A stretch of DNA of 64,000 nucleotides, taken from Bdellovibrionales bacterium. GTDB taxonomy: Bacteria; Bdellovibrionota; Bdellovibrionia; Bdellovibrionales; JAUICD01. This document shows, piece after piece, positions 39,910-61,011 of this stretch. The translations under genes and the position numbers were made by a program. Under the pieces are notes generated by a model, which saw nothing but the letters and a program-made list of their open reading frames with translations, was not told the origin of the DNA and did no database searches. The stretch spans positions 1,440,001-1,504,000 of the forward strand of contig OZ253553.1 of the NCBI GenBank assembly GCA_965262715.1. Direction: 5' to 3'. Each line of letters begins with the position of its first letter. Position 1 is the stretch's first letter.

Positions 39910-40246
39910 ACAAACTATGAAAAAGTCCTAAGCTTAATGAGTTTTATCAATTAATTAAACAATATCTTAGTTTAATTAAATCATTGTAAATATTATCCAT
40001 TAATACAATATTTTTTTGAAACAATAATGCTATCTTTATTAATTCTGTCAAACTTATGTTTCCTATTTTAATCTAAAGAGAGGCCACGAGTCCTAAAAAT
40101 AGTTTTTATAATCTCAGCATACCTTGTGCCTGTACTTTCATCAAATAACTGCTTAGCTAAGTTTACAATCTTAACCCCAGCTGTTACAAAACGTAACTTC
40201 AAATCGCAAGTGCAACTCTTTTGTGTTTATAGATATTTTTAAAAGT
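39910..40246. repeat. 337-bp direct repeat (second copy 42167-42503) flanking IS1634-1
   Basis: Both copies abut the IS TIRs and read identically. Confidence 0.95.
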
Positions 40247-42166
40247 CCTGACTTCGACGGTTTAAACTTATAAGTTACTGGGATCATTGGATGATACATT
40301 ACATCATAGGCACTACAATTGATTTTTAGTTATGTATTAAGTGTATTTTTATTCAATAAGATAAGGTGTTGTAGAGTGCTTAAGTCCCATAATCTGATAG
40401 ATTTTCAGAGCTTCCTTACTTATATTTGAAGGTATAGAGTACTTTCTGTTATTGGTTTGATCTACTAATAAACTATGCTGTACATGGATTAAAGCATTTC
40501 GTATAACTTCCGGTGAACAGGATTGGTATTGTATCTTAATTCTGTAAGCTAAGTGTCTTATACAGACTAAACAGATAAAAGCAATGGCTATGTGTGCTTT
40601 GATCCGATCTGATGTCCAGTGAAATATAGGACGTATTTTTAAATCATGCTTAGCTATCCGGAATGTTTCTTCGACTTGCCATAACCCCTTATATTGGCTA
40701 ATAATGTCTAAATCATCCATATCTTTGAGGTTTGTTATGACTCCAAACAAACCATCCCACTTTTGATCTTCTTTGACTCGATTTTCATTGACTGAAAGCT
40801 TTTGTTTCTTGCCTGTGACTTTTAAATACTTCTTATAACCGTAATTGTTTAATAAAGTCTTCACATCTTGAGCCTTTGAGAGTTTCTTAACTAAACTATC
40901 TATAGTTTGTTGACGATCATGTCGATCTTTCTCCGCTCTCTTATAAGAATAACAAACTATCACTTTCCTCTTATTATCTTTATCTTCTAATGATTGAATC
41001 TTGAAACCTTCTTGTTTACTGACAATTTTGTACTTTGACTTATCTAATACAAGCTCTTGTTTTACTTTTGGTAATTTCTTAAGCTTAGCTCCTACAATAT
41101 AATGAAGATTCTCATCTTCTAGTGCTTTTAAATTATCTTCACTTAACATTCCTCTATCAGCGACATAAATAGCTTGTTCTAAGTTATATTTAGACTTCAT
41201 CTCTTTTATCACTGGATTTAAGGTATGACCCTCGAAGATAGCACCCGGGAAAGTCTCGTAACTGACAGGAAAACCTTCTTTGGTCACAACGACTGCTAAA
41301 CACACTTGAGATTCTTTAAACTTAGCATCTTTACTGTAACCTCTTTGTCTTAAATCATCTTCAATAATTGATTCAAAATACAGTGTCGTACAATCAAAAA
41401 ACAAAACTTTCAAAGGCTCTTTAAAAACCTTTTGTGCCACTTGACCTGCCAGTCTCTTTATCTTATCTATCCTTTTGCTATCTAAACGATCCATCATGCG
41501 ATAAATCTTCTCTAACGAAATATGAACTCCAAAATCCTCTTCTAAAAATCGACTGCTCTCTCTTTTACTTTGAGGATTAGCTATCCGAGCCATCACTGTA
41601 TGAAATAAAACCCAATGTGATGAATGATAACGACTCACTGGTAAAATGCGATCTAAACCTAATTCCTTGTACATAGCTCCATAAACCTCATGAATACCTA
41701 CAATGACTCTTTGATCTTCCCTTAGTTTCTTAAGATCTACTTTTAAGGGTTTATTGCAATGACGAAACTTGGACTCAATCACTTGTTTAGAAATCTCTTC
41801 CGGAGCAAAAAAAGATAATTGATTTTCATTTGTTAGTTTAGCTTTGATGAATTCTCCAAGCTCTTGAAGACGAAATAGCTCATCCTCATCTTGAGCCACT
41901 CCGACATGACGGATGATCTTTTGGCGAACTTTATTGCCATAACGGATAGAATCAACGATCTGAACTGACTGCCTTGGACTGTTTGGTGTGCTTTTGATTC
42001 TTACAAACATAAAAATAATTTAATGCTTATTAAAAAAAAAGTCAAAATAAAAATAAAAATAATCTGACATGGTGTGTTACTAGGCACTACATCGAAAACT
42101 TACTCCAAAATCCTATAACCATCAATGTTACAAAATCAATACCGAACATAAACCGTCGAAGTCAGG
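40247..42166 (-). mobile_element. IS1634-family element 1 (1,920 bp)
   Basis: Perfect 18-bp TIR CCTGACTTCGACGGTTTA. Confidence 0.95.
40349..42010 (-). CDS. IS1634-family transposase
   Basis: FFDCTTLYFE, GYSKD, VADRGM, YKGLWQVEETFR, RPIFHW. Confidence 0.96.
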   Translation of the reverse strand: MFVRIKSTPNSPRQSVQIVDSIRYGNKVRQKIIRHVGVAQDEDELFRLQELGEFIKAKLTNENQLSFFAPEEISKQVIESKFRHCNKPLKVDLKKLREDQRVIVGIHEVYGAMYKELGLDRILPVSRYHSSHWVLFHTVMARIANPQSKRESSRFLEEDFGVHISLEKIYRMMDRLDSKRIDKIKRLAGQVAQKVFKEPLKVLFFDCTTLYFESIIEDDLRQRGYSKDAKFKESQVCLAVVVTKEGFPVSYETFPGAIFEGHTLNPVIKEMKSKYNLEQAIYVADRGMLSEDNLKALEDENLHYIVGAKLKKLPKVKQELVLDKSKYKIVSKQEGFKIQSLEDKDNKRKVIVCYSYKRAEKDRHDRQQTIDSLVKKLSKAQDVKTLLNNYGYKKYLKVTGKKQKLSVNENRVKEDQKWDGLFGVITNLKDMDDLDIISQYKGLWQVEETFRIAKHDLKIRPIFHWTSDRIKAHIAIAFICLVCIRHLAYRIKIQYQSCSPEVIRNALIHVQHSLLVDQTNNRKYSIPSNISKEALKIYQIMGLKHSTTPYLIE

Positions 42167-42448
42167 ACAAACTATGAAAAAGTCCTAAGCTTAATGAGTT
42201 TTATCAATTAATTAAACAATATCTTAGTTTAATTAAATCATTGTAAATATTATCCATTAATACAATATTTTTTTGAAACAATAATGCTATCTTTATTAAT
42301 TCTGTCAAACTTATGTTTCCTATTTTAATCTAAAGAGAGGCCACGAGTCCTAAAAATAGTTTTTATAATCTCAGCATACCTTGTGCCTGTACTTTCATCA
42401 AATAACTGCTTAGCTAAGTTTACAATCTTAACCCCAGCTGTTACAAAA

Positions 42449-43786
42449 CGTAACTTCAAATCGCAAGTGCAACTCTTTTGTGTTTATAGATATTTTTAAA
42501 AGTTGTATCACTTTAGGATTAATATTCCAACAAAGTTTTAATTATCATGAAAGATTATAGTAAATTATTTAATTTGAATGAATGTATTTTGATGTTTATG
42601 GCAAAGTCTCGTAGTCCTCGAGCTAAAGCTCTGCGGAAGAACGATCCTTTGCCATAAACATCAAGCTGTCAAATAAGCATCTTCAGAAGTTATTATATAT
42701 AAGTAAAATTAAATGGATAAACTATGAATAACTTCAGCAAACCATCTTTTGTCTATGAAACTCATTAGGGGTTAGAAAACCTAAACTCTTTCGAGGGCGA
42801 TGGTTTAAAAGAGACTCAACCTTTTTTACATCCTTAGAGGTGACTTCTCTAAAATCTGTCTTCTTTGGAAAATACTGACGGATTAAACCATTCGTGTTCT
42901 CATTTAAACCTCTCTCATATGAACTGTAAGGATGTGCAAAATAAACTTTACATCCAGTATATTCACTGATCTTCTCATGACACGAAAACTCTTTACCATT
43001 ATCCAAAGTCATTGTATGAACAACCTCTCCTTTAAGAGCTTTAGAAATAGCATGAAAAACTGCCTCAGATCTCTTAGATTCTATTTTGACAATCCTCGTC
43101 TTCTTAGAACATCTATCTACCAGTGTGACTAAAGCTCCTTTATGATGTCTACCTATCATTAGATCACCTTCCCAGTCTCCTATCCGACTCTTCTTATCTA
43201 CTATCTTAGGCCTTTTATCAATGCTCACTCTATTCTTTATCTGACCCCTTTTATCAAATCTACTTGTACCATATCGCTTCTTGCGTTGCCTCTGACATCT
43301 TAAAAATTTGTAGAGATCTCCTCCTGATTGCTTATCTCCAAGAATATGCTGATAAATACTCTCATGACTTATAGACAAACCTTTTGGTTTAAGAAAACCG
43401 GATATCTGTTCCGGACTCAAACGATCACGAAGAAACCTCTCAAGCTTATTAATGACTTTTTGTGTTATCTTTATATGTCTATGAGAGTTTTGAAGACGAT
43501 CGACTGCTTTTTCATGGGCTTGTTGAGGACGATAACCTCGCAAGCCTTTGTTACGATTCAATTCCCTATATATGGTGCTTTTATCTCGACCTACCTGAGT
43601 AGCAATTGAACTTATTGATTTTCCACTTTGCAAAAAAGCTAAAATCTGGTATCTCTCATGTTGGGTTAGATGAGTGTAATTGCTCATGGAATACTCCTTT
43701 CATTATTTAAAGAGATTGATTAGAGTATTCCTCTAACCCGCTTTAAATAACTATGCAAGGAGTTGCACTTGCAACTTGAATCCACC
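42449..43786 (-). mobile_element. IS30-family element, copy 2, AAA target duplication
   Basis: Same TIRs as copy 1; removing it plus 3 bp restores the host reading frame. Confidence 0.93.
42734..43687 (-). CDS. IS30-family DDE transposase
   Basis: Nearly identical to 23323..24276. Confidence 0.97.
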   Translation of the reverse strand: MSNYTHLTQHERYQILAFLQSGKSISSIATQVGRDKSTIYRELNRNKGLRGYRPQQAHEKAVDRLQNSHRHIKITQKVINKLERFLRDRLSPEQISGFLKPKGLSISHESIYQHILGDKQSGGDLYKFLRCQRQRKKRYGTSRFDKRGQIKNRVSIDKRPKIVDKKSRIGDWEGDLMIGRHHKGALVTLVDRCSKKTRIVKIESKRSEAVFHAISKALKGEVVHTMTLDNGKEFSCHEKISEYTGCKVYFAHPYSSYERGLNENTNGLIRQYFPKKTDFREVTSKDVKKVESLLNHRPRKSLGFLTPNEFHRQKMVC

Positions 43787-44983: not shown

Positions 44984-46611
44984 ATTGTTGTGTTTGTGAT
45001 TTTTGCTTCTTGGCAATCCTCGGTAGTTCCACCTCCTGAGCCTACACATTGCCATTGGTAATGAGTTTCTGTCTCTTGAGTATCTCGTGGTTGACCTGTT
45101 TGGCAAATACCTTTACTAGATCCACAACTCCCACTGACTGGACTTCCAGTTTCAATAGGACATACATGATGACTTTGTCTTTCACTGACAGTGCCAAAAT
45201 AACAATAATTACCATCTGCTGGACAATAATGATAATAGCTTTGTGAATCAACATCTCCCTGATTGTAAGATGCAAAAAGTGTGACTGCTTCATTTATACA
45301 ACCCGCACCTAAATCAGATGAAACCTCTACCAATTCACTATCACAATTAAAATCAATCTTACTCTCTTTGTTAATTTGATACTGGCAACTATCAGCATTA
45401 AGAATTTCTATTTGAAAAAAAAGCATGTCTGGCTTTTCGTATATATAAATATCGTTTTCTTCCAATATAGCTAATATACTATCTCTACCATCTGTAAAAT
45501 TTATGGGATTAAAATAAGGTCTTACATTTGAAGTCACAATAACCTCTTTTCTTCTATAGATCAGACATTCACTCTTTGAAGCATCAGAACTTGTAGCAGA
45601 AACTTCAATCACTAAAAGCCCATTACTCTCAGATGAAAGATCCACTTCTAATGTATCTACACCATCCTCATTTTCAATAACTTGTCCAGATGGAAGTGTA
45701 GCTTTCCAGTTAATGGAAGAAAAGTCTGAACTATCTTTCAAACCAAAAATAGAATATCCAGATTCACCCACTTTAAAAGAAGCCGAAGTTTCTGGTAAGA
45801 GCTCTATTTCTAAAATATCAGTAAGTGAGCAAGATTCTCCAACCACAAATTTTTTACTAGCTCTAGTTTTAGGCTCTGTAGCTTCATAAGAATTAGCAAA
45901 AACATCATAAGACCCTAATTCCGAAAACTTCGCTGAATATGTACCTGTCTGTGTCGAAGCATCTGTTACAATAGATTCAAAACCTCTTTTGATTGTCCAT
46001 TTGTAGTTATCAGATTTAGGATCAACATTTAAAAGCTTAAAGGTTATATCTGAATCAATAGGAAGAAGCTGATTTTCTATAAAGTCCCCACTTTCGGGAT
46101 TTATTTGAACAATAAATCCTCTTTCATAATTTATATCCACTGGGTTAGATACTGGCTTATCTTTTAGATTATCCTCTGGAGATTTTATATGTTCTTCTGG
46201 TAGTAGCTCATCAGTAAACATTTTACAATTTTGAAAAACTATTAAGAAAGCAGGAATACAAAAAAACTATAATATATAAAGTATTCAAATACTTCGCACT
46301 TGAATATTTAAAGAAAGAAATCACCTTTTGCAATTTCTTACTATAGAAATGATTTTTCTGAATCTGACTCAAAACTAAGTCCCTTCTATCTCTATTGTTT
46401 CTTTTTGATATAAATAATATTCGGCTAAAACCTTAAATTACATAAGATCACCTGAGTTCATGAGTATAGAGAATGCGGTAAACCAAAGATGAAAATACTA
46501 AAAGTTCTTGGTCAATCAAGAGATAGAGAAGAGATAGAATATTTTAAGAAGATGGGAGAAGCATTGAAGTAAGAGTTAGAGACAGGGATAAAAGCGAATC
46601 CTATTCTTCCA

Positions 46612-46735
46612 CCTCTGGCGATTTTCTGGCATTGCCCCTGATGGTTTTACCATCAGAAAATGGGCAATGCCTAGAAAAAATAGCCATTTTTAGGAAGGAG
46701 AGACTTTTTCTTCTTTAACACCATGTTAAGGAAAC
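46612..46735. repeat. Palindromic element family A, copy 7 (one end truncated)
   Basis: GGCATTGCCC/GGGCAATGCC stem; ATGTTAAGGAAAC end. Confidence 0.85.
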
Positions 46736-46767
46736 TCTTTCATTAGAGCATCTTTTGGATGGAGACT

Positions 46768-47127
46768 CCTGAGTTTGACAGTTGCAAAAATAAAGTTGAC
46801 TTATCTTAGTTAGTTACAGTGGATGGGTGATTTTGTACCACCTTAAGTTGTTTAGAAGGTATCTTTGCTCCTATAGCTTTAAATACATCAGCATTGTTAC
46901 CGTTAAATATCTGTTCTGATCCAAAGTGTCTTATCCTTTATTCTCACAGGTATGGCTCGTACTTCTTTCAGCTTTGACATAGCTTTCGCTACACTCAATG
47001 GCCTTGGCTTTATTCTCTTATCTGCGATTGCTTTGTCTTTTAAGATAGTCCTTTTCTCATCTAACTTCAGCTCTCAACAAGATGATAATATGTGTCTCCT
47101 CTCGGATTTCTTGTAGACCTTATGAAC
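46768..47127 (-). mobile_element. Internally deleted relic of an IS1634-2 relative
   Basis: CCTGAGTTTGACAGTTGC end plus segments matching the transposase 3' part (about 57518-57730) and 5' part (about 59090-59148). Confidence 0.9.
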
Positions 47128-47477
47128 CTAGAATAAAATACTTTATACAAACCTCATTTCCTAAGGCACTGGCCTAAACCTATTTCAGAAACCTGCCATA
47201 ACTCTTAAACCGTTGAAAGAAACTATATTAGATATTGTTTGTCATATTTCAGATGTAAGTCCAAAATGCTTCCATCAAAGTCTCTGGACACCATCCTTTA
47301 TCATGATACCGGATAACTTGCCAATGTAGTACTAATTATGAACCTATGAGTATTACATTAACTGAATGCATATATGATTGACAAGTAACTGAACTTAATA
47401 TACAGGACCAGCTAGTTATGAAAAGAAATCAGTATAAATAAAAATGATTATATTAAAATTTTTGAGGTAATAAAATA

Positions 47478-54429: not shown

Positions 54430-55557
54430 ATGCTATCATTTCCAATAGACAACAGACTGACCAAAGACCTTATAACTCTTAACGAGCTTGTATCAGAAAA
54501 ATACGCTCTTTTAGAAACATTACCAAAAGATGAGAGGGAAAATATACATCGTTATGCGCGAATCAGTATGATTGGGGCTTCTACCCGGATAGAAAATGCC
54601 ATATTAACAGATAGCCAAGTGGATTGGCTAGACTCTATTTTGGGTGAACCCAGCAAAAGAACAGCTTTAGATGAACACAGAATTCAAATTGAAGATAAGT
54701 TATCAAAAGATAAGAAAAGAAGTATTGAAGAGGTAGTTGGCTGCCGAACAGTTCTTTTACTGATATATGGACAAGCTAAAGATTATCTTCCATTAACAGA
54801 GTTTTTATTAAGGTCTCTTCATTATGAACTTTTACGTTTTTATACAAAGCCAGGAATAAAAAAAGGTCAGTATAAAGATCATTCCAATTCAGTTATTAAA
54901 GAAAACCAAAAAACAAAAGAAAAAAGTCATGTTTTTAAAACTGCAGATCCAGGAGTCATCACCCAAATGGCTATGAAAGAGTTGATTCAATGGTATAATG
55001 CAGCTATTCAGACAGAACCTTGGCCTATTGCAGTTGCAACAGAGTTTGTATATAGATTTTTAGCTATACATCCATTTCAAGATGGTAATGGCCGGTTAGG
55101 CAGATCCCTTATGTTGATGTCACTACTTCATTGCCCTGATAAAAAATTATCCTCTGTTATATATTATCTTGCAATAGATCGTCATATAGAAAAACATAGA
55201 GAAGAATATTACCTTGTCCTTAATCAATGTTCTGGAGGTGAATACAAACAAAATCCTACTGAATACAAAATTCACTTTTTTCTAAAATTCATGATAAAAA
55301 TTCTTAAAGAAGCAATGGCAGATATTGATTTTTATTCTAGAAGAGCAAAAGCTTATAAAAAACTCTCGGAGTCTTCTATAAAAATTCTGTTGTGTTTTAA
55401 AGAGAAAGCTGAAGAAAAATTAAAAACAAGTGATATACTTAAGGAAACTAAGCTACCAAAAAGAACAATTACAAATTCCCTGAAAACATTAATAGATAAA
55501 GAGTTTATCGCAAGATACGGACAAGGTGCCGCTACTTATTACCGCCTCATATTTTAA
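54430..55557 (+). CDS. Fic-family protein with C-terminal winged HTH
   Basis: HPFQDGNGRLGR motif; GASTRIEN resembles the Fic autoinhibitory motif. Confidence 0.93.
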   Translation: MLSFPIDNRLTKDLITLNELVSEKYALLETLPKDERENIHRYARISMIGASTRIENAILTDSQVDWLDSILGEPSKRTALDEHRIQIEDKLSKDKKRSIEEVVGCRTVLLLIYGQAKDYLPLTEFLLRSLHYELLRFYTKPGIKKGQYKDHSNSVIKENQKTKEKSHVFKTADPGVITQMAMKELIQWYNAAIQTEPWPIAVATEFVYRFLAIHPFQDGNGRLGRSLMLMSLLHCPDKKLSSVIYYLAIDRHIEKHREEYYLVLNQCSGGEYKQNPTEYKIHFFLKFMIKILKEAMADIDFYSRRAKAYKKLSESSIKILLCFKEKAEEKLKTSDILKETKLPKRTITNSLKTLIDKEFIARYGQGAATYYRLIF

Positions 55558-55766
55558 GTTGTCTTAAACCAAAGTGCTTTAAAAAAATCAGTACAAATTC
55601 AGATGTTTCATGTTCTTACTCTTTTTAAAATTTCTCTTGCTTTTTTTTCAAAAATCATTTAAGAAGTAATATTTAGACTCAGTCAATAAAAGAGTATAAC
55701 TAAAGTTTTTTAAAAACCGTTGAAAAGATCGACAGGCTTAACAAAATCAGAGGGGTTAAAAACATA

Positions 55767-56186
55767 ATGAAAATGTATATATCATTTTTACTCATTTTAG
55801 GAATAGGATTTACCGGTCAGACCTTTGCTCAATCACAAGAGGAGGACGCAACAGGAGTTATATTTGGCTGTTCATTTTCTGGTTATCTTCAATGTGTCCT
55901 TAATGCAATTGCATCTGGAGGGGATGTGAATGCTACTTTGGATCAGACCCCTCTTATGATTGTTTCTGGCTTAGGACATATTGAGCTTGTTCAAGCTTTC
56001 ATTGGTGCAGGTGCAGATATAAATGCTTCTACTCGTACGGGATGGACGCCACTCACTTATGCTGTGAATGAAGGGCATACTGACATAATTCGGCTCCTTC
56101 TCGAGCGTGGTGCGAGTGTAGAAGTTCTATCTGAAGCGCAAACAGCAAAGATGAATCGATTATTACAAGAAAACCCACCACTTTAA
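55767..56186 (+). CDS. Secreted ankyrin-repeat protein (copy 1)
   Basis: Signal peptide; TPLMIVS...GADINA...GWTPLTYA. Confidence 0.88.
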   Translation: MKMYISFLLILGIGFTGQTFAQSQEEDATGVIFGCSFSGYLQCVLNAIASGGDVNATLDQTPLMIVSGLGHIELVQAFIGAGADINASTRTGWTPLTYAVNEGHTDIIRLLLERGASVEVLSEAQTAKMNRLLQENPPL

Positions 56187-56272
56187 TTAGAACTCATCTT
56201 AAAATTACTTCTTGCGCTCACGTTTTCAAAACAACCTCTTAATTTAGACTCTATATAAAAGGGCTGTCTCAC

Positions 56273-56336
56273 TCAAAATGGACAGACTCTCTTAAAAGCG
56301 CGTATACACGCTTTTAAGAGAGTCTGTCCATTTTGA
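56273..56336. terminator. Perfect 28-bp-arm hairpin between convergent genes (duplicate at 59892-59955)
   Basis: TCAAAATGGACAGACTCTCTTAAAAGCG-CGTATACA-reverse complement. Confidence 0.5.
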
Positions 56337-56508
56337 CTAGAAGCCATCTCATAAAATAATATTTTGCATTTCGACTTCTTAAATATTATAAAACTTTATT
56401 TTTGAGATGGCTCCTAAAATCACGAGCAGCTTTTTTAATATTCAAGCAGATGACCAACGCTATTTCAAAAAACTGATAACTTTACTTTATTAGATAGCTT
56501 CTAAGAAC

Positions 56509-57210
56509 CTATCCGAAAAAGACACCTACCCCTAATGTGATATAAAAACCATTCAAATTCATTTTATTATCATCAGGTACTTCTCGATCAGTGCCATCAT
56601 ATTCCACTTCAAGATCAGTAAAAGAAAACAAATCATACCCAGCTTCTAACTTAAAAAGAAAGTTAGAAGTTGGCATAAATCCAAATTCTACGCCTAATTG
56701 ACCAGTAAGTTGATCCCATAAGAACTGGTTACTTCTAGTTTCCATTTTTTTAACATTTGTACCACCAACACTAACACCATTGCCAAAATCTTCTGGGAAT
56801 TTGACAGATTTCCAAATATCTAAACCAAAAATAGCTCCTACAAAAAACTGATCCATAAGAAATCTGTAATTTGTAAGGAAAGCTATTCGATGAGTGGTAA
56901 ACTTATACTTACCTGTGATATCATTACTCTCTGCTTCCTTTTCTCCTTGAAAATCAAAACGATATCTAAGTCCCAAACCAAGACTAGCATCCTGCATTGG
57001 ATTTCTATAGAAAACATCTGCACCTAAATGCCATGGTTGATTTTTTTGTACCGTATTTAATGATATAACCGCATTTGAAATACTGACTTTACCTCCAAGT
57101 TTTTTACCAAAATGACCTGAAAATTCTATATTGCCATAAGCAACATGAGAACCCATCACCATTGTAAATAAACAAATGAATAAAACTTTTGATTTATTGA
57201 AAAATAACAT
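56509..57210 (-). CDS. Outer-membrane beta-barrel protein (copy 1)
   Basis: Signal peptide, amphipathic strands, C-terminal FYITLGVGVFFG; AGGAGG RBS. Confidence 0.8.
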   Translation of the reverse strand: MLFFNKSKVLFICLFTMVMGSHVAYGNIEFSGHFGKKLGGKVSISNAVISLNTVQKNQPWHLGADVFYRNPMQDASLGLGLRYRFDFQGEKEAESNDITGKYKFTTHRIAFLTNYRFLMDQFFVGAIFGLDIWKSVKFPEDFGNGVSVGGTNVKKMETRSNQFLWDQLTGQLGVEFGFMPTSNFLFKLEAGYDLFSFTDLEVEYDGTDREVPDDNKMNLNGFYITLGVGVFFG

Positions 57211-57381
57211 AAGATACCCCTCCTAAATGAAACTATTAATTGCTATTAACCTTATACTAAATACTTACTTAAATACAGAGAGGTAGCAAGAAGACTTAAT
57301 GCCTTAAGTCAAAGACGAGATCTTCCGCAGAGTCATCGCTACCAAGCGATGACTCGAGGACTTTGAGGATTTGGCTTAAGG

Positions 57382-59334
57382 CCTGAGTTTGACAGTTGCG
57401 AAAATAAAGTTGAGTTATTTTAGTTAGTTACAGTGGATGTGTGATTTTGTACCACTACATTTTGATTTTGTGGTAGAGATTTAAGAGATTGTTTGTAGGT
57501 TTAAGTAGATTCAATTTTAAGTTGTTTTGATGGGATCTTAACTCCTATAGCTTTAAATACATCAGCGTTATTGCCATAAATATCTGTTCTTATCCAAATA
57601 GTTTTGTTTTTATATCTGACAGGTATAGCTCGTACTTCTTTCAGCTTTGACATAGCTTCCGCTACACTCAATGGCCTTGACTTTATTCTCTTGTCTGTGA
57701 TCGCTTTATCTTTTAATGTGATGTTTCTTTGATGTAACTTCTTTGCAAAATAAGCCTCACATAAGTAAGATAAAAAACACACAACTAAATGACCTAATAT
57801 CCTCTTATCTGTCCAGTGGAACATAGGACGTGTCTTTAATGTACCCTTCAACTCTCTAAATGAATTCTCTACCTTCCATAATTGCTTATAGTTCATTATA
57901 ATCTCTTCAGAGCTTAAATCTGTATTTGTAATTATTCCAAAAAAACCATCTGTCCTCTCTGATTGTTCTATAGCTGACTTATTTAAAGTAGGCTTGCCTT
58001 TACTCTTAGGATGAACAATATACTTCTTATAATTACTATTAGATAAAAAAGATCTTGTGCTTATGGACTTCTTTGATAATTGAGCTTCTATCTTAGATAG
58101 AATATCTTCTCTTACTTTCTTATCTCGTTCTGCTCTCTTTCTCGACCAGGTAATTATACAACGATCATTATTATAGCTTGTCTCGTATATAGCTAAATCT
58201 TCATTTATAAATTTAAAATTCTTTAAATTGTATATCTCTGCATGACGATCCTTTAATAAACCTAGCTTTAATCCTACTATAAATTCATCTCCCTTTGCTT
58301 TTAATGATTGGAGATTCTCATTAGAAAATAAACCTCTATCTCCTACTAATATAAATCTTCTGATCTTAAACTTCTTTTTTAGCTTCGTCATAACTGAAGG
58401 TATTGTTTTACCTTCAAATGTATTCCCAGGATAAACATCAAAGCCTAAGGGCATACCTTCTGTATCTACTAAAAGTCCAAATACCACTTGTGTGCAATCA
58501 CTCCTCTTCTCTTTGCTATAACCAAACCTTCGAAGATTATCTAAATCCTCACGGGTACTCTCAAATCTCAATGTCGTTAAATCATACAAAATAACATCAC
58601 ACTCATTGAAAAAACTTAATTGAGACTTACCTCGCATATAAAGAGTCTTCTCTATATCTTCTTTATGCTTACTTAGAATATCTAAAGAACGATAAATGTC
58701 TTGAAGATGAAGCTCCCCTTCTAAAAAATCAGGATAAAATAACTTCTGCCAGTGTGAAAATACTTTAAGCTTAGAACAAGGCTCTACAAAACGACTTATA
58801 ACCAATGTAAAAATAATCTTAACAAAATCAAATTGCACTTTACGATGCTTCTGTTTTAAATCTGTTAATAATCTATAGAGATTTAATTGTTTAAAAATAG
58901 TATCTATTATAAGCAAAGGACCTAAAATAAAAGTGTCTTTTACATCAATCTCTTTTAATAACTTACTAGCAGGAATTATCTCTAACTCTTTAGATAATAC
59001 GTCTAGAAGCTTCTTCAAGTTAACTTCCTTATCCGCGGCTTTACCTAAAGACATTAGAATCCTTTGCTTCACTTGAGAACCTAATCTGTAGCTCTCAACA
59101 AGATGATAATATATGTCTCCTCTCGGATTTCTTGTAGACCTTATGAACATAAAAATACATTACAAGAAAAATATAAAAAATAAAAGAAAATAAGGTATAT
59201 GACGCGTAGTGTATGATAAATAAGTACACTACACTTTTTGACCAAAATACAAACACAATAACCGCTAATGACTATAAATACAACATTCCTTGAAAAAAAT
59301 ATCACGAAAATTCAAATTAAGTGTCAAACTCAGG
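57382..59334 (-). mobile_element. IS1634-family element 2 (1,953 bp)
   Basis: 13-bp TIR CCTGAGTTTGACA/TGTCAAACTCAGG. Confidence 0.95.
57501..59150 (-). CDS. IS1634-family transposase
   Basis: LYDLTTLRFE, GYSKEKR, VGDRGL, YKQLWKVENSFR, RPMFHW. Confidence 0.96.
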   Translation of the reverse strand: MFIRSTRNPRGDIYYHLVESYRLGSQVKQRILMSLGKAADKEVNLKKLLDVLSKELEIIPASKLLKEIDVKDTFILGPLLIIDTIFKQLNLYRLLTDLKQKHRKVQFDFVKIIFTLVISRFVEPCSKLKVFSHWQKLFYPDFLEGELHLQDIYRSLDILSKHKEDIEKTLYMRGKSQLSFFNECDVILYDLTTLRFESTREDLDNLRRFGYSKEKRSDCTQVVFGLLVDTEGMPLGFDVYPGNTFEGKTIPSVMTKLKKKFKIRRFILVGDRGLFSNENLQSLKAKGDEFIVGLKLGLLKDRHAEIYNLKNFKFINEDLAIYETSYNNDRCIITWSRKRAERDKKVREDILSKIEAQLSKKSISTRSFLSNSNYKKYIVHPKSKGKPTLNKSAIEQSERTDGFFGIITNTDLSSEEIIMNYKQLWKVENSFRELKGTLKTRPMFHWTDKRILGHLVVCFLSYLCEAYFAKKLHQRNITLKDKAITDKRIKSRPLSVAEAMSKLKEVRAIPVRYKNKTIWIRTDIYGNNADVFKAIGVKIPSKQLKIEST

Positions 59335-59385
59335 ACCGTTGAAAAGATCGACAGGCTTAACAAAATCAGAGGGGTTAAAAACATA

Positions 59386-59805
59386 ATGAAAATGTATATA
59401 TCATTTTTACTCATTTTAGGAATAGGATTTACCGGTCAGACCTTTGCTCAATCACAAGAGGAGGACGCAACAGGAGTTATATTTGGCTGTTCATTTTCTG
59501 GTTATCTTCAATGTGTCCTTAATGCAATTGCATCTGGAGGGGATGTGAATGCTACTTTGGATCAGACCCCTCTTATGATTGTTTCTGGCTTAGGACATAT
59601 TGAGCTTGTTCAAGCTTTCATTGGTGCAGGTGCAGATATAAATGCTTCTACTCGTACGGGATGGACGCCACTCACTTATGCTGTGAATGAAGGGCATACT
59701 GACATAATTCGGCTCCTTCTCGAGCGTGGTGCGAGTGTAGAAGTTCTATCTGAAGCGCAAACAGCAAAGATGAATCGATTATTACAAGAAAACCCACCAC
59801 TTTAA
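59386..59805 (+). CDS. Secreted ankyrin-repeat protein (copy 2)
   Basis: Identical to 55767..56186. Confidence 0.88.
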   Translation: MKMYISFLLILGIGFTGQTFAQSQEEDATGVIFGCSFSGYLQCVLNAIASGGDVNATLDQTPLMIVSGLGHIELVQAFIGAGADINASTRTGWTPLTYAVNEGHTDIIRLLLERGASVEVLSEAQTAKMNRLLQENPPL

Positions 59806-60127
59806 TTAGAACTCATCTTAAAATTACTTCTTGCGCTCACGTTTTCAAAACAACCTCTTAATTTAGACTCTATATAAAAGGGCTGTCTCACTCAAAATGG
59901 ACAGACTCTCTTAAAAGCGCGTATACACGCTTTTAAGAGAGTCTGTCCATTTTGACTAGAAGCCATCTCATAAAATAATATTTTGCATTTCGACTTCTTA
60001 AATATTATAAAACTTTATTTTTGAGATGGCTCCTAAAATCACGAGCAGCTTTTTTAATATTCAAGCAGATGACCAACGCTATTTCAAAAAACTGATAACT
60101 TTACTTTATTAGATAGCTTCTAAGAAC

Positions 60128-60829
60128 CTATCCGAAAAAGACACCTACCCCTAATGTGATATAAAAACCATTCAAATTCATTTTATTATCATCAGGTACT
60201 TCTCGATCAGTGCCATCATATTCCACTTCAAGATCAGTAAAAGAAAACAAATCATACCCAGCTTCTAACTTAAAAAGAAAGTTAGAAGTTGGCATAAATC
60301 CAAATTCTACGCCTAATTGACCAGTAAGTTGATCCCATAAGAACTGGTTACTTCTAGTTTCCATTTTTTTAACATTTGTACCACCAACACTAACACCATT
60401 GCCAAAATCTTCTGGGAATTTGACAGATTTCCAAATATCTAAACCAAAAATAGCTCCTACAAAAAACTGATCCATAAGAAATCTGTAATTTGTAAGGAAA
60501 GCTATTCGATGAGTGGTAAACTTATACTTACCTGTGATATCATTACTCTCTGCTTCCTTTTCTCCTTGAAAATCAAAACGATATCTAAGTCCCAAACCAA
60601 GACTAGCATCCTGCATTGGATTTCTATAGAAAACATCTGCACCTAAATGCCATGGTTGATTTTTTTGTACCGTATTTAATGATATAACCGCATTTGAAAT
60701 ACTGACTTTACCTCCAAGTTTTTTACCAAAATGACCTGAAAATTCTATATTGCCATAAGCAACATGAGAACCCATCACCATTGTAAATAAACAAATGAAT
60801 AAAACTTTTGATTTATTGAAAAATAACAT
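60128..60829 (-). CDS. Outer-membrane beta-barrel protein (copy 2)
   Basis: Identical to 56509..57210. Confidence 0.8.
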   Translation of the reverse strand: MLFFNKSKVLFICLFTMVMGSHVAYGNIEFSGHFGKKLGGKVSISNAVISLNTVQKNQPWHLGADVFYRNPMQDASLGLGLRYRFDFQGEKEAESNDITGKYKFTTHRIAFLTNYRFLMDQFFVGAIFGLDIWKSVKFPEDFGNGVSVGGTNVKKMETRSNQFLWDQLTGQLGVEFGFMPTSNFLFKLEAGYDLFSFTDLEVEYDGTDREVPDDNKMNLNGFYITLGVGVFFG

Positions 60830-60909
60830 AAGATACCCCTCCTAAATGAAACTATTAATTGCTATTAACCTTATACTAAATACTTACTTAAATACAGAGA
60901 GGTAGCAAG

Positions 60910-61011
60910 AAGACTTAATGCCTTAAGTCAAAGACGAGATCTTCCGCAGAGTCATCGCTACCAAGCGATGACTCGAGGACTTTGAGGATTTGGCTTAAGG
61001 CATTAAGTCTT
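60910..61011. repeat. Hairpin element family D (CCGCAG-stem-GAGGA core)
   Basis: AAGACTTAATGCCTTAAG arms with an inner GAGTCATCGCT/AGCGATGACTC stem. IS-truncated copy at 57291-57381; partial arm near 63905. Confidence 0.8.

Follow-up and report, generated by a model that had tools for sequence, protein, structure and literature searches.

Can a single transposition event copy a target interval more than a kilobase long, along with the genes it contains? This question is raised by an insertion sequence (IS) of the IS1634 family that lies between two long direct repeats in the genome of a Bdellovibrionales bacterium. We analyzed the locus in a 64,000-nucleotide stretch of contig OZ253553.1, referred to here as the window, and compared it with related IS copies in the same genome and elsewhere.

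Structure and gene content of the focal locus

The intervals 55716-57381 and 59335-61000 agree at every base (1,666 bp, 0 differences). Both can be extended by one base, to 1,667 bp (55716-57382 and 59335-61001), and this 1-bp ambiguity at the right end arises because copy 2 is followed by a C, the base with which the IS also begins. Both 1,667-bp copies abut the 13-bp inverted ends of the IS exactly, without a spacer; the element (57382-59334) starts with CCTGAGTTTGACA and ends with TGTCAAACTCAGG, a perfect inverted repeat. The original prediction, of direct copies ending at the 13-bp terminal inverted repeats (TIRs) of one IS1634 element with a 1-bp ambiguity, was thus exact on both points. 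Short dispersed repeats inside it excepted, the repeat sequence is confined to these two places in the 2.94-Mb genome, and it is therefore not a chance match. A genome-wide census detected no further IS copy bordering the repeat on the outside; the nearest IS-related sequences are a fragment about 8.5 kb off and a copy of another lineage, type B, about 13.5 kb off.

Table 1. Features of the repeat–IS–repeat structure, in window coordinates
Feature	Position	Strand	Remarks
Direct repeat copy 1 (target-site duplication, left of IS)	55716..57381	.	Native left flank; right edge joins IS left end; identical to 59335-61000
Ankyrin-repeat gene copy 1, 139 aa	55767..56186	+	Native upstream region; signal-peptide-like N-terminus
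64-nt perfect-stem palindrome, terminator-like on both strands	56273..56336	.	Between the two convergent genes; second copy 59892-59955
Likely outer-membrane beta-barrel gene copy 1, 233 aa	56509..57210	-	171 bp before ATG, then IS left end
IS1634-family insertion sequence, type A, 1,953 bp	57382..59334	-	One of six copies 99.9-100% identical
Left terminal inverted repeat CCTGAGTTTGACA	57382..57394	+	Perfect 13-bp inverted repeat with right end
Transposase gene, 549 aa, DDE type	57501..59150	-	PF01609 and NF033559 matches
Right terminal inverted repeat	59322..59334	-	Reverse complement of left TIR
Direct repeat copy 2 (right of IS)	59335..61000	.	Native right flank; ambiguous C is base 61001
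Ankyrin-repeat gene copy 2	59386..59805	+	51 bp native DNA before ATG, then IS right end
Likely outer-membrane beta-barrel gene copy 2, 233 aa	60128..60829	-	Native upstream region

The 549-aa transposase matches the IS1634-family model NF033559 at 365.5 bits (cut-off 100), covering profile positions 1-482 of 483, and PF01609 (DDE core, IS4-type fold) at 51.3 bits (threshold 23); other transposase lineages score 262-382 bits against the IS1634-family model. Residues D190, D271, and E428 are invariant in transposases of five lineages. A degenerate YREK motif is present (Y421-x2-L-x3-E428-x6-K435), with leucine at the arginine position and Y421, E428, and K435 invariant; the consulted portion of a 2008 family review lists a YREK motif with the arginine mostly missing as an IS1634-family criterion, together with a length of 1.5-2.0 kb and the terminal consensus C-----YT (PMC2266710). 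The focal IS agrees with the latter two in its 1,953 bp and its ends, CCTGAGTT. It departs from the family norm of a 5-6 bp target duplication, copies in this genome carrying 50-1,667 bp, and the long repeats match the known exceptions IS1634 and IS1549 instead.

Each repeat copy holds two whole open reading frames (ORFs), of 139 aa (+) and 233 aa (-). A Pfam scan of the 139-aa ORF returned Ank (3e-16) and Ank_2 (1.6e-15), and its N-terminal start is signal-peptide-like as judged by eye. For the 233-aa ORF, Pfam scans gave no match even at E 10, and a profile search against solved structures gave a chance-level match only. A 46%-identical homologue matches OMP_b-brl (1.2e-5; 26 bits, under the 28.7-bit cut-off), PF13505 is precomputed for this homologue and 8 further proteins among 42 homologues, and language-model neighbors include OMP beta-barrel clusters. 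Judging from these relatives, the ORF likely encodes an outer-membrane beta-barrel protein. Where the locus was originally read as holding a secreted ankyrin gene and an outer-membrane barrel gene, the ankyrin assignment stands on the Ank and Ank_2 matches, secretion is suggested by the signal-like start, and the barrel is a likely identity. The reading that each gene has one copy with its native upstream region and one with IS DNA upstream holds. The frame of ankyrin copy 2 is open back to a TTG at 59290, within the IS, and barrel copy 1 lies downstream of the transposase gene in the same orientation, 171 bp from the IS left end.

Flanking repeats across copies and genomes

Four lineages account for the 33 full-length IS1634-family copies of the genome, A with 21, B with 8, and C and D with 2 each, with lineage A sharing 30-33% protein identity with B, C, and D. 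Abutting direct repeats are found at both termini in 31 of them, at lengths of 50-1,667 bp, and all differ among copies in both sequence and length. Type A copies have exact repeats of 50, 92, 95, 107, 117, 119, 146, 189, 246, 305, 312, 779, 855, 1340, 1594, and 1667 bp, inexact repeats of 576 bp (99.8%) and 735 bp (96.5%), and one repeat of about 327 bp that is split by a later insertion. Type B repeats measure 87, 233, 238, 290, 294, 337, 345, and 1663 bp; those of type C, 164 and 1182 bp; and those of type D, 84 bp and 251 bp (97.6%). Five of the 31 are at least 1.18 kb (1.18-1.67 kb). A clear repeat is absent at two copies (genome positions 1340305 and 2845957), and a short 5-6 bp duplication was seen at none of the 33. 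Tabulating the flanking repeats of all copies had been proposed as a check of the original prediction, and the outcome favors target duplication. The IS copy that has diverged furthest, at 80% identity to the focal element, is also flanked by one of the least conserved repeat pairs (96.5%), which fits age and makes an assembly artefact impossible there.

Whole ORFs are enclosed in six events: three ankyrin genes, lgt, the barrel gene, and two unknowns. The proposal that the transposase could duplicate surface and secreted genes is therefore upheld in that whole genes are doubled, but not in its specificity, since lgt and the unknowns are doubled as well. In the older ankyrin pair, within the 735-bp repeat, both genes are open and differ by 12 non-synonymous and 5 synonymous codons; we considered retention of this pair under selection and rejected it, these counts giving no sign of purifying selection.

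The pattern extends to other genomes. In two related Bdellovibrionota genomes, repeats occur at all three full copies examined: 308 bp (100%), 761 bp (97.6%), and 882 bp (99.9%). A search for related loci, based on an alignment of three transposase lineages (all five being too divergent), covered 11 sponge-symbiont assemblies (76 loci) and yielded 52 distinct events of 21 to about 1,690 bp, the longest about 1,685-1,695 bp and the others 21-929 bp. The transposases of these symbionts are 51-59% identical to type B, and the TIR is the same. Base-exact, dated events thus total 86: 31 from this genome, 3 from the Bdellovibrionota relatives, and 52 from the other assemblies.

The two joints lie anywhere from 21 to about 1,690 bp apart, with lengths widely scattered over the 40-400 bp range, and no repeat exceeds the element length. 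Helical phasing was not significant among the 65 repeats under 400 bp (Rayleigh test, p = 0.15). At the joints, T occupies position -1 in 49 of 54 half-sites, against a background T frequency of 33%; the focal left junction has G (or C) there, not the usual T. We also considered the promoter -10 box as a target and rejected it: hexamers before the joint average 2.59 matches to TATAAT, and random T-ending hexamers 2.57. A consensus promoter scan of the region was likewise at chance, with 23 found versus 22.3 expected.

Routes to a kilobase-scale duplication

Such repeats accompany almost all related copies in this genome and in others, so the focal one most likely records a single insertion. 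From the sequence evidence, we consider it probable that one 1,953-bp IS1634-family insertion produced the two 1,667-bp copies as its target-site duplication, likely when the IS ends were joined to opposite strands about 1.67 kb apart and host synthesis copied the interval. The kilobase-scale target duplication of the original prediction is thus supported by both the census of this genome and independent assemblies. In the proposed mechanism, the transposase would join the two IS ends to opposite target strands about 1.67 kb apart, and host DNA synthesis would then copy the interval on both sides of the IS. One local rule may guide each end to its target phosphate, but the distance between the ends would not be set as it is in ordinary transpososomes; a looped target would be an example of how such unfixed spacing could arise. 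The long single-stranded gaps would presumably be filled by strand-displacing repair or restart replication, and homologous recombination across the long perfect repeats is predicted to excise the IS, restoring the original site. Reading the two distant joints as a 1.67-kb stagger in one duplex is our inference; the sequence alone would be the same if two sister duplexes had been captured.

That other route also involves one transposition: the IS ends would be joined to two sister duplexes behind a replication fork, 1.67 kb apart, leaving the interval in two copies on the IS-bearing chromosome, with degradation of the broken arms. It would account for variable, long, unphased distances with no need to open 1.7 kb of duplex. 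At 1594, 1663, 1667, and about 1690 bp, the longest repeats would match the sizes of Okazaki fragments in bacteria and of gaps close to the fork; the lack of a repeat at two copies could represent the deletion-type product that capture of sister duplexes predicts. However, this route presupposes either two double-strand breaks or resolution of a branched intermediate, its deletion products would be unrecognizable without a reference strain, and nothing in the sequence demands it. We regard it as unlikely.

Other explanations dispense with a long target duplication: the IS would have entered the junction of a pre-existing tandem duplication, or unequal recombination would have joined two independent insertions with short duplications. 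There is precedent in Mycoplasma mycoides PG1, where IS1634-flanked tandem repeats of 13 kb and 8 kb are ascribed, in the portion of the report consulted, to the flanking IS elements (PMC1798306). Here, though, 31 insertions in this genome alone would each have to fall precisely where two tandem copies meet. Unequal exchange between IS copies yields an IS-X-IS-X-IS arrangement, whose outer IS copies are absent here, and no copy shows the short duplication that the second route supposes. The scenario named in advance as refuting the original prediction, recombination of two insertions with short duplications, is therefore not seen, there being neither an outer IS nor a 5-6 bp duplication. We consider these explanations very improbable and, given the census, close to refuted.

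An empty allele of the focal site was sought in three ways. No syntenic locus turned up when 41 related genomes were searched at the DNA level; two regions of a same-genus genome held only barrel paralogues of 43-44% identity, the flanking genes being absent; and an exact 40-mer scan of metagenome contigs for the empty site gave no match.

The focal structure itself rests on the submitted assembly and on depth. The public contigs are short-read de Bruijn assemblies, none of which spans both repeat copies. In runs X2 and X3, from one sample, contigs wholly within the repeat have a depth of 23.6-24.9 versus 10.5-16 for unique flanks; in X6, from a third study, repeat and flank contigs are equal in depth, at a level (about 2) too shallow to interpret. 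Contig breaks fall at 59335, at 55745 (30 bases into the repeat), and in X6 at 61001, the pattern anticipated if two junctions share the repeat. An X3 contig runs straight across the left edge of the focal repeat despite the approximately 2x depth there, so such contigs can hide a junction. At the 1,663-bp type B event, X3 and X4 contigs read left flank-repeat-right flank with 3,583 bp skipped, and de Bruijn contigs may collapse duplications; IS-repeat junction contigs for this event occur in X2 and X5 (same sample), at depths of 6 and 13.6 versus 7.9 and 13 for the flanks. Since hidden junctions are possible, we did not count the skipped form as proof of an empty site.

Within these data, a 128-bp stretch that includes the palindrome is present in both assembled copies, and roughly half the repeat copies among the public contigs lack it; the assembled copies may therefore be more alike than the real ones. 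That the assembler wrongly doubled sequence beside a multi-copy IS is nonetheless hardly credible, given repeat contigs at about 1.7-1.9 times flank depth in X2, diverged repeat pairs (96.5%, 97.1%, 97.6%) that are impossible from collapsed or copied reads, and the same pattern in 13 other independent assemblies.

Relation to known elements and consequences

That IS1634 and IS1549 make long target duplications of variable length was already known in the late 1990s. The focal element resembles these two in transposase family, size (IS1634 is 1,872 bp; PMC1798306, consulted in part), TIR start (C-----YT), and copy-to-copy variation in repeat length. Their published duplications span 8-514 bp in the consulted portion of PMC2266710, in agreement with the range of tens to a few hundred base pairs given in the original prediction; according to that 2008 review, no mechanistic model for them had been put forward. 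By contrast, five events here reach 1.18-1.67 kb in one genome, with one of about 1.69 kb elsewhere, and the focal repeat is three times longer than any described for the family in that published range. Long repeats are also near-universal here over four lineages about 30% identical (31 of 33 copies, none under 50 bp), and whole genes are doubled. The literature searched contained no kilobase-scale target duplication in the IS1634 family. Typical members have 5-6 bp duplications in the review's table (PMC2266710), and ISGka5 of Geobacillus kaustophilus, placed in the same family by its authors, has one of 6 bp (PMC8024623), a type of duplication found at no copy here. The M. mycoides PG1 segments are similar in that a segment of several genes is present twice with an IS1634-family copy in between, but they are also IS-flanked outside, and their authors, in the portion consulted, assume that the flanking IS caused the tandem duplications (PMC1798306); here there is no outer IS, and the repeat ends at the termini of a single IS. 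The focal case is accordingly a real, gene-duplicating, kilobase target duplication, one that extends a known trait and not a new kind of element.

For the family as a whole, the 86 events constrain any model: the trait is obligate or nearly so in these lineages, spans 21 to about 1,690 bp, is unphased, strongly favors T at each joint, and gives repeats no longer than the element. As a tentative generalization, a widespread IS1634-family clade may have dropped fixed-stagger capture, its ends picking separate T-flanked sites up to roughly one element-length apart, such that each insertion would copy tens to about 1,700 bp and duplicate small genes, reversibly by recombination. In three lineages the element is 1.9-1.95 kb long, and an upper limit slightly below this, at about 1.6-1.7 kb, might then reflect IS DNA acting as a tether between the two joints.

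For genome annotation, kilobase repeats beside IS copies of this type are genuine and should be retained in full, not merged. A single insertion can double complete genes, including the essential-type gene lgt, a consequence absent from the portions of the literature consulted. A gene wholly inside the interval is duplicated, a gene crossing one edge keeps an intact copy, and one copy of every duplicated gene acquires IS DNA upstream. Because an intact copy survives on one side, such an element can insert "in" an operon without gene loss.

The focal transposon and the genes whose copies it separates

The two copies flanking the focal type-A element are identical across their full 1,666 bp in the window. 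The identity extends to 1,667 bp, since copy 2 is followed by a C that matches the first base of the element; this agrees with the original prediction of two direct copies abutting 13-bp inverted ends with a single ambiguous base. On NF033559, the NCBIfam model for the IS1634 family (cut-off 100), the focal transposase scores 365.5 bits. Models of the IS4 family score far lower, and the protein carries Pfam DDE_Tnp_1. Residues D190, D271, and E428 do not vary across an alignment of the genome's five lineages, and the YREK region takes the form Y-x2-L-x3-E-x6-K. The absence of its arginine is, according to De Palmenaer et al. (PMC2266710), the trait that separates the IS1634 family from IS4, and element size and terminal consensus (C-----YT) agree with the table of that paper. 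Because transposase score, DDE residues, YREK form, size, and ends all fit, the element belongs to the IS1634 family, departing from it only in the family-typical 5-6 bp duplication.

Within each repeat copy lie two complete convergent ORFs, of 139 and 233 amino acids. The shorter encodes ankyrin repeats (Pfam Ank 3e-16, Ank_2 1.6e-15) behind a hydrophobic N-terminus (last residues TFAQ) that resembles a signal peptide by eye. The longer resembles it at the N-terminus, contains alternating hydrophobic stretches, and ends in FFG at its C-terminus. Our Pfam scans of this protein returned no match, a 46%-identical homologue matches OMP_b-brl at 1.2e-5 (under the family cut-off), PF13505 is precomputed for it and 8 further proteins among 42 homologues, and its language-model neighbors include OMP beta-barrel clusters. 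It had been proposed that whole secreted ankyrin and outer-membrane barrel genes were copied; both ORFs are indeed complete, with the second a likely barrel judging from these features. Barrel copy 1 lies downstream of the transposase gene and is co-oriented with it, and ankyrin copy 2 is left with 51 bp of native upstream sequence.

Coordinates of the focal event and related features (window positions, or positions on the genome contig G000:C1 where marked)
Feature	Coordinates	Remarks
Focal repeat, copies 1 and 2	55716-57381, 59335-61000
Focal element, 1,953 bp	57382-59334	perfect 13-bp inverted ends, CCTGAGTTTGACA
Single long ORF in focal element, 549 aa	57501-59150	minus strand
Short dispersed repeats in duplicated segment	56182-56420, 57284-57381	repeat positions 467-705 and 1569-1664; dozens of genome-wide copies, 70-90%
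23-bp inverted repeat	60910-60932 / 60989-61011	right edge of duplication (61001) inside second arm
Fic-domain protein	54430-55557	directly left of duplication; Pfam Fic 5.6e-14; weak C-terminal winged-helix match
Paralogue cluster of 233-aa barrel gene	G000:C1:2491155-2496930	68-74% DNA identity over gene parts
128-bp palindromic stretch	56242-56369, 59861-59988	present in assembly at both copies
Skipped 137-bp segment	61110-61248	just right of duplication
Type-B element, 1,920 bp	40247-42166	ends CCTGACTTCGACGG
Exact 337-bp repeat of type-B element	39910-40246, 42167-42503
Decayed type-A fragments	46451-47145	IS positions 1-74, 136-335, and 1709-1781 matched at 87-95% identity
Unit with two type-B transposase genes	G000:C1:2903764-2907847	4,084 bp
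1,594-bp repeat of a type-A copy (L091)	G000:C1:1700151-1701744 / 1703698-1705291	complete lgt (Pfam LGT 2.2e-50)

A series of abutting repeats in this and other genomes

The genome, a single contig of 2,939,090 bp with 33.6% G+C, contains four IS1634-family lineages (A-D) with ends CCTGA[GC]TT. Element fragments are also present, as is a fifth lineage that is more remote. Lineage A shares only 30-33% protein identity with B, C, and D. A genome-wide tabulation of IS1634 flanking repeats, as had been proposed alongside the original prediction, revealed direct repeats of 50-1667 bp abutting both termini in 31 of 33 full-length copies. The other two copies (genome positions 1340305 and 2845957) have no clear repeat and lie in locally repetitive DNA, and a short duplication was found at none of the 33. 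Since these lengths form a continuous series, the focal event is its longest member rather than an isolated case, and a near-equal repeat was made by lineage B. One type-B locus bears two transposase genes head to tail in one TIR-bounded unit with a 345-bp flanking repeat, a nested or tandem IS structure.

Direct repeats abutting full-length IS1634-family copies in the genome
Lineage	Element length	Copies	Abutting repeats (bp)
A	1,953 bp	21	exact: 50, 92, 95, 107, 117, 119, 146, 189, 246, 305, 312, 779, 855, 1340, 1594, 1667; further: 576 (99.8%), 735 (96.5%), ~327 (right copy interrupted later)
B	1,920 bp	8	87, 233, 238, 290, 294, 337, 345, 1663
C	1,996 bp	2	164, 1182
D	1,954 bp	2	84, 251 (97.6%)

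Similar repeats occur in other genomes. Both full copies in a same-genus genome have them (308 bp at 100% and 761 bp at 97.6%), as does the sole full copy in a related Bdellovibrionota genome (882 bp, 99.9%). A wider scan of one genome per species yielded 76 loci from 11 assemblies, public MAGs labelled in their titles as Gamma- and Alphaproteobacteria associated with sponges. Under strict criteria these loci hold 49 distinct repeat events of 21-929 bp (51 rows, two of which are one region fetched twice); three more events (464 bp, 572 bp, and ~1,685-1,695 bp) fail the TIR filter and are clear by inspection. At 27 of the 76 loci no repeat of at least 18 bp was found under the same criteria; these loci may carry shorter or decayed ones. 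The transposases of the 76 loci are 51-59% identical to lineage B and many of the loci share its 14-bp end, which suggests that a type-B-like lineage has spread between unrelated bacteria.

Halved coverage had been named as a sign of misassembly. We instead found contigs lying wholly within the focal repeat to be deeper (23.6-24.9) than its unique flanks (10.5-16) in X2 and X3, two public short-read runs from one sample in which multi-copy IS depth is ~90-140. Contigs end at 59335, 55745, and, in run X6 from another study, 61001, the points at which the assembly graph would have to branch if the repeat had two different neighbors per side. The X2/X3 sample may be the source of the genome assembly, so the depth result checks the assembler rather than the biology; X6, too shallow at a depth of ~2, has no excess over the repeat. 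A systematic assembly artefact is excluded, since diverged repeat pairs exist and the pattern recurs in 13 other assemblies.

The contigs also contain a joint that skips 128 bp of the repeat, with CAA in its place, at about half the repeat depth (13 in X2, 12.6 in X3) and again in X6. The skipped stretch holds a 64-nt perfect palindrome. It may thus be a difference between the real copies, or between two sub-populations: either a mobile hairpin element that just one copy of the repeat carries, or a polymorphism in the population. Contigs of X2, X3, and X6 also skip 137 bp beside the duplication, which may be another small polymorphic insert.

No empty site for the focal locus was found among related genomes, same-genus genome regions, and metagenome contigs. 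Where lineage B made its 1,663-bp repeat, X3 and X4 have contigs that connect the two flanks through a single copy of the repeat and leave out exactly 3,583 bp (1,663 + 1,920). The IS-repeat junction is present in X2 and X5, which come from that sample too. This is only a hint that the insertion is polymorphic, because graph simplification can yield the same contig.

Joint sequences and a possible mechanism

We compared the joints of 27 exact events, which give 54 half-sites. At 49 of these, T adjoins the IS end, against a background of 33%, so the duplicated segment typically has A as its first base and T as its last. The five exceptions include the focal left joint. Weaker preferences are T at -5 (32/54) and A at -3 (29/54), and the hexamer before the joint is not more -10-like than random T-ending hexamers. 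By a crude mask, and with half-sites of short events being non-independent, 30 of 54 fall outside ORFs of at least 100 aa, as does 22% of the genome; this excess may reflect target choice or survivorship.

Repeat lengths are spread broadly over ~40-400 bp and are sparser above, with no 10-11.5-bp periodicity below 400 bp. All remain within the length of the elements, 1.9-1.95 kb, and the four longest, 1594, 1663, 1667, and ~1690 bp (the last from locus L015 of the wider scan), come from three lineages and cluster just below it. Given this apparent ceiling, IS DNA may limit the spacing of the joints, which we offer only as a lead.

Each insertion comprises one element and two joints that follow a common local rule, and the spacing of the joints varies 80-fold. 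We infer a transposase without a fixed stagger. The two 3' ends of the element would each attack a different site, one on either strand, and a looped target is the simplest setting for this. Such attack would leave the interval single-stranded on each side, and host fill-in would convert it into two duplex copies. Attack across sister duplexes at a replication fork would give an identical product, and we regard this route as unlikely.

Duplicated genes and the known range of the family

Seven complete ORFs fall within the duplications of six events in this genome. Besides the two focal genes, ankyrin genes lie in the 1,182-bp repeat and an older 735-bp repeat, lgt lies in the 1,594-bp repeat, and the remaining two ORFs (151 and 143 aa) are unknown. 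With lgt complete within its duplication, the genome has two identical copies; the adjacent D-Ala-D-Ala carboxypeptidase gene has one intact and one truncated copy. Like it, the other genes overlapping a duplication edge, encoding an M16 peptidase and a TonB-C protein, retain an intact copy, and a gene wholly containing the interval is broken (1,340-bp event). In the older ankyrin pair both copies are open and differ by 12 non-synonymous and 5 synonymous codons, so far as these sequences tell persisting without evidence of constraint. The predicted kilobase-scale target duplication that copies genes is supported by this series. Its proposed role for surface and secreted genes would fit the ankyrin and likely barrel genes and is too narrow for lgt and the unknown ORFs; ankyrin genes are three of the seven, no measure of enrichment in a genome with 142 Ank_2 matches.

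According to PMC2266710, the family norm is a 5-6 bp duplication, IS1549 and IS1634 are exceptions at 8-514 bp, and no model exists for their long duplications. ISGka5 duplicates 6 bp (PMC8024623). For M. mycoides PG1, PMC1798306 reports tandem repeats of 13 kb and 8 kb that involve IS1634, and assumes them to be due to flanking IS elements. In contrast to the norm, the elements here make no 5-6 bp duplications, producing 50-1,667 bp instead, the longest about threefold greater than those of the two exceptions. A full-text literature search, with ISfinder/TnPedia and the original IS1634 and IS1549 descriptions outside its scope, returned no kilobase target duplication by an IS. Set against the published 8-514 bp, our finding extends the known duplication range about threefold and adds the duplication of whole genes, and its main value is that the series of events is large and clean.
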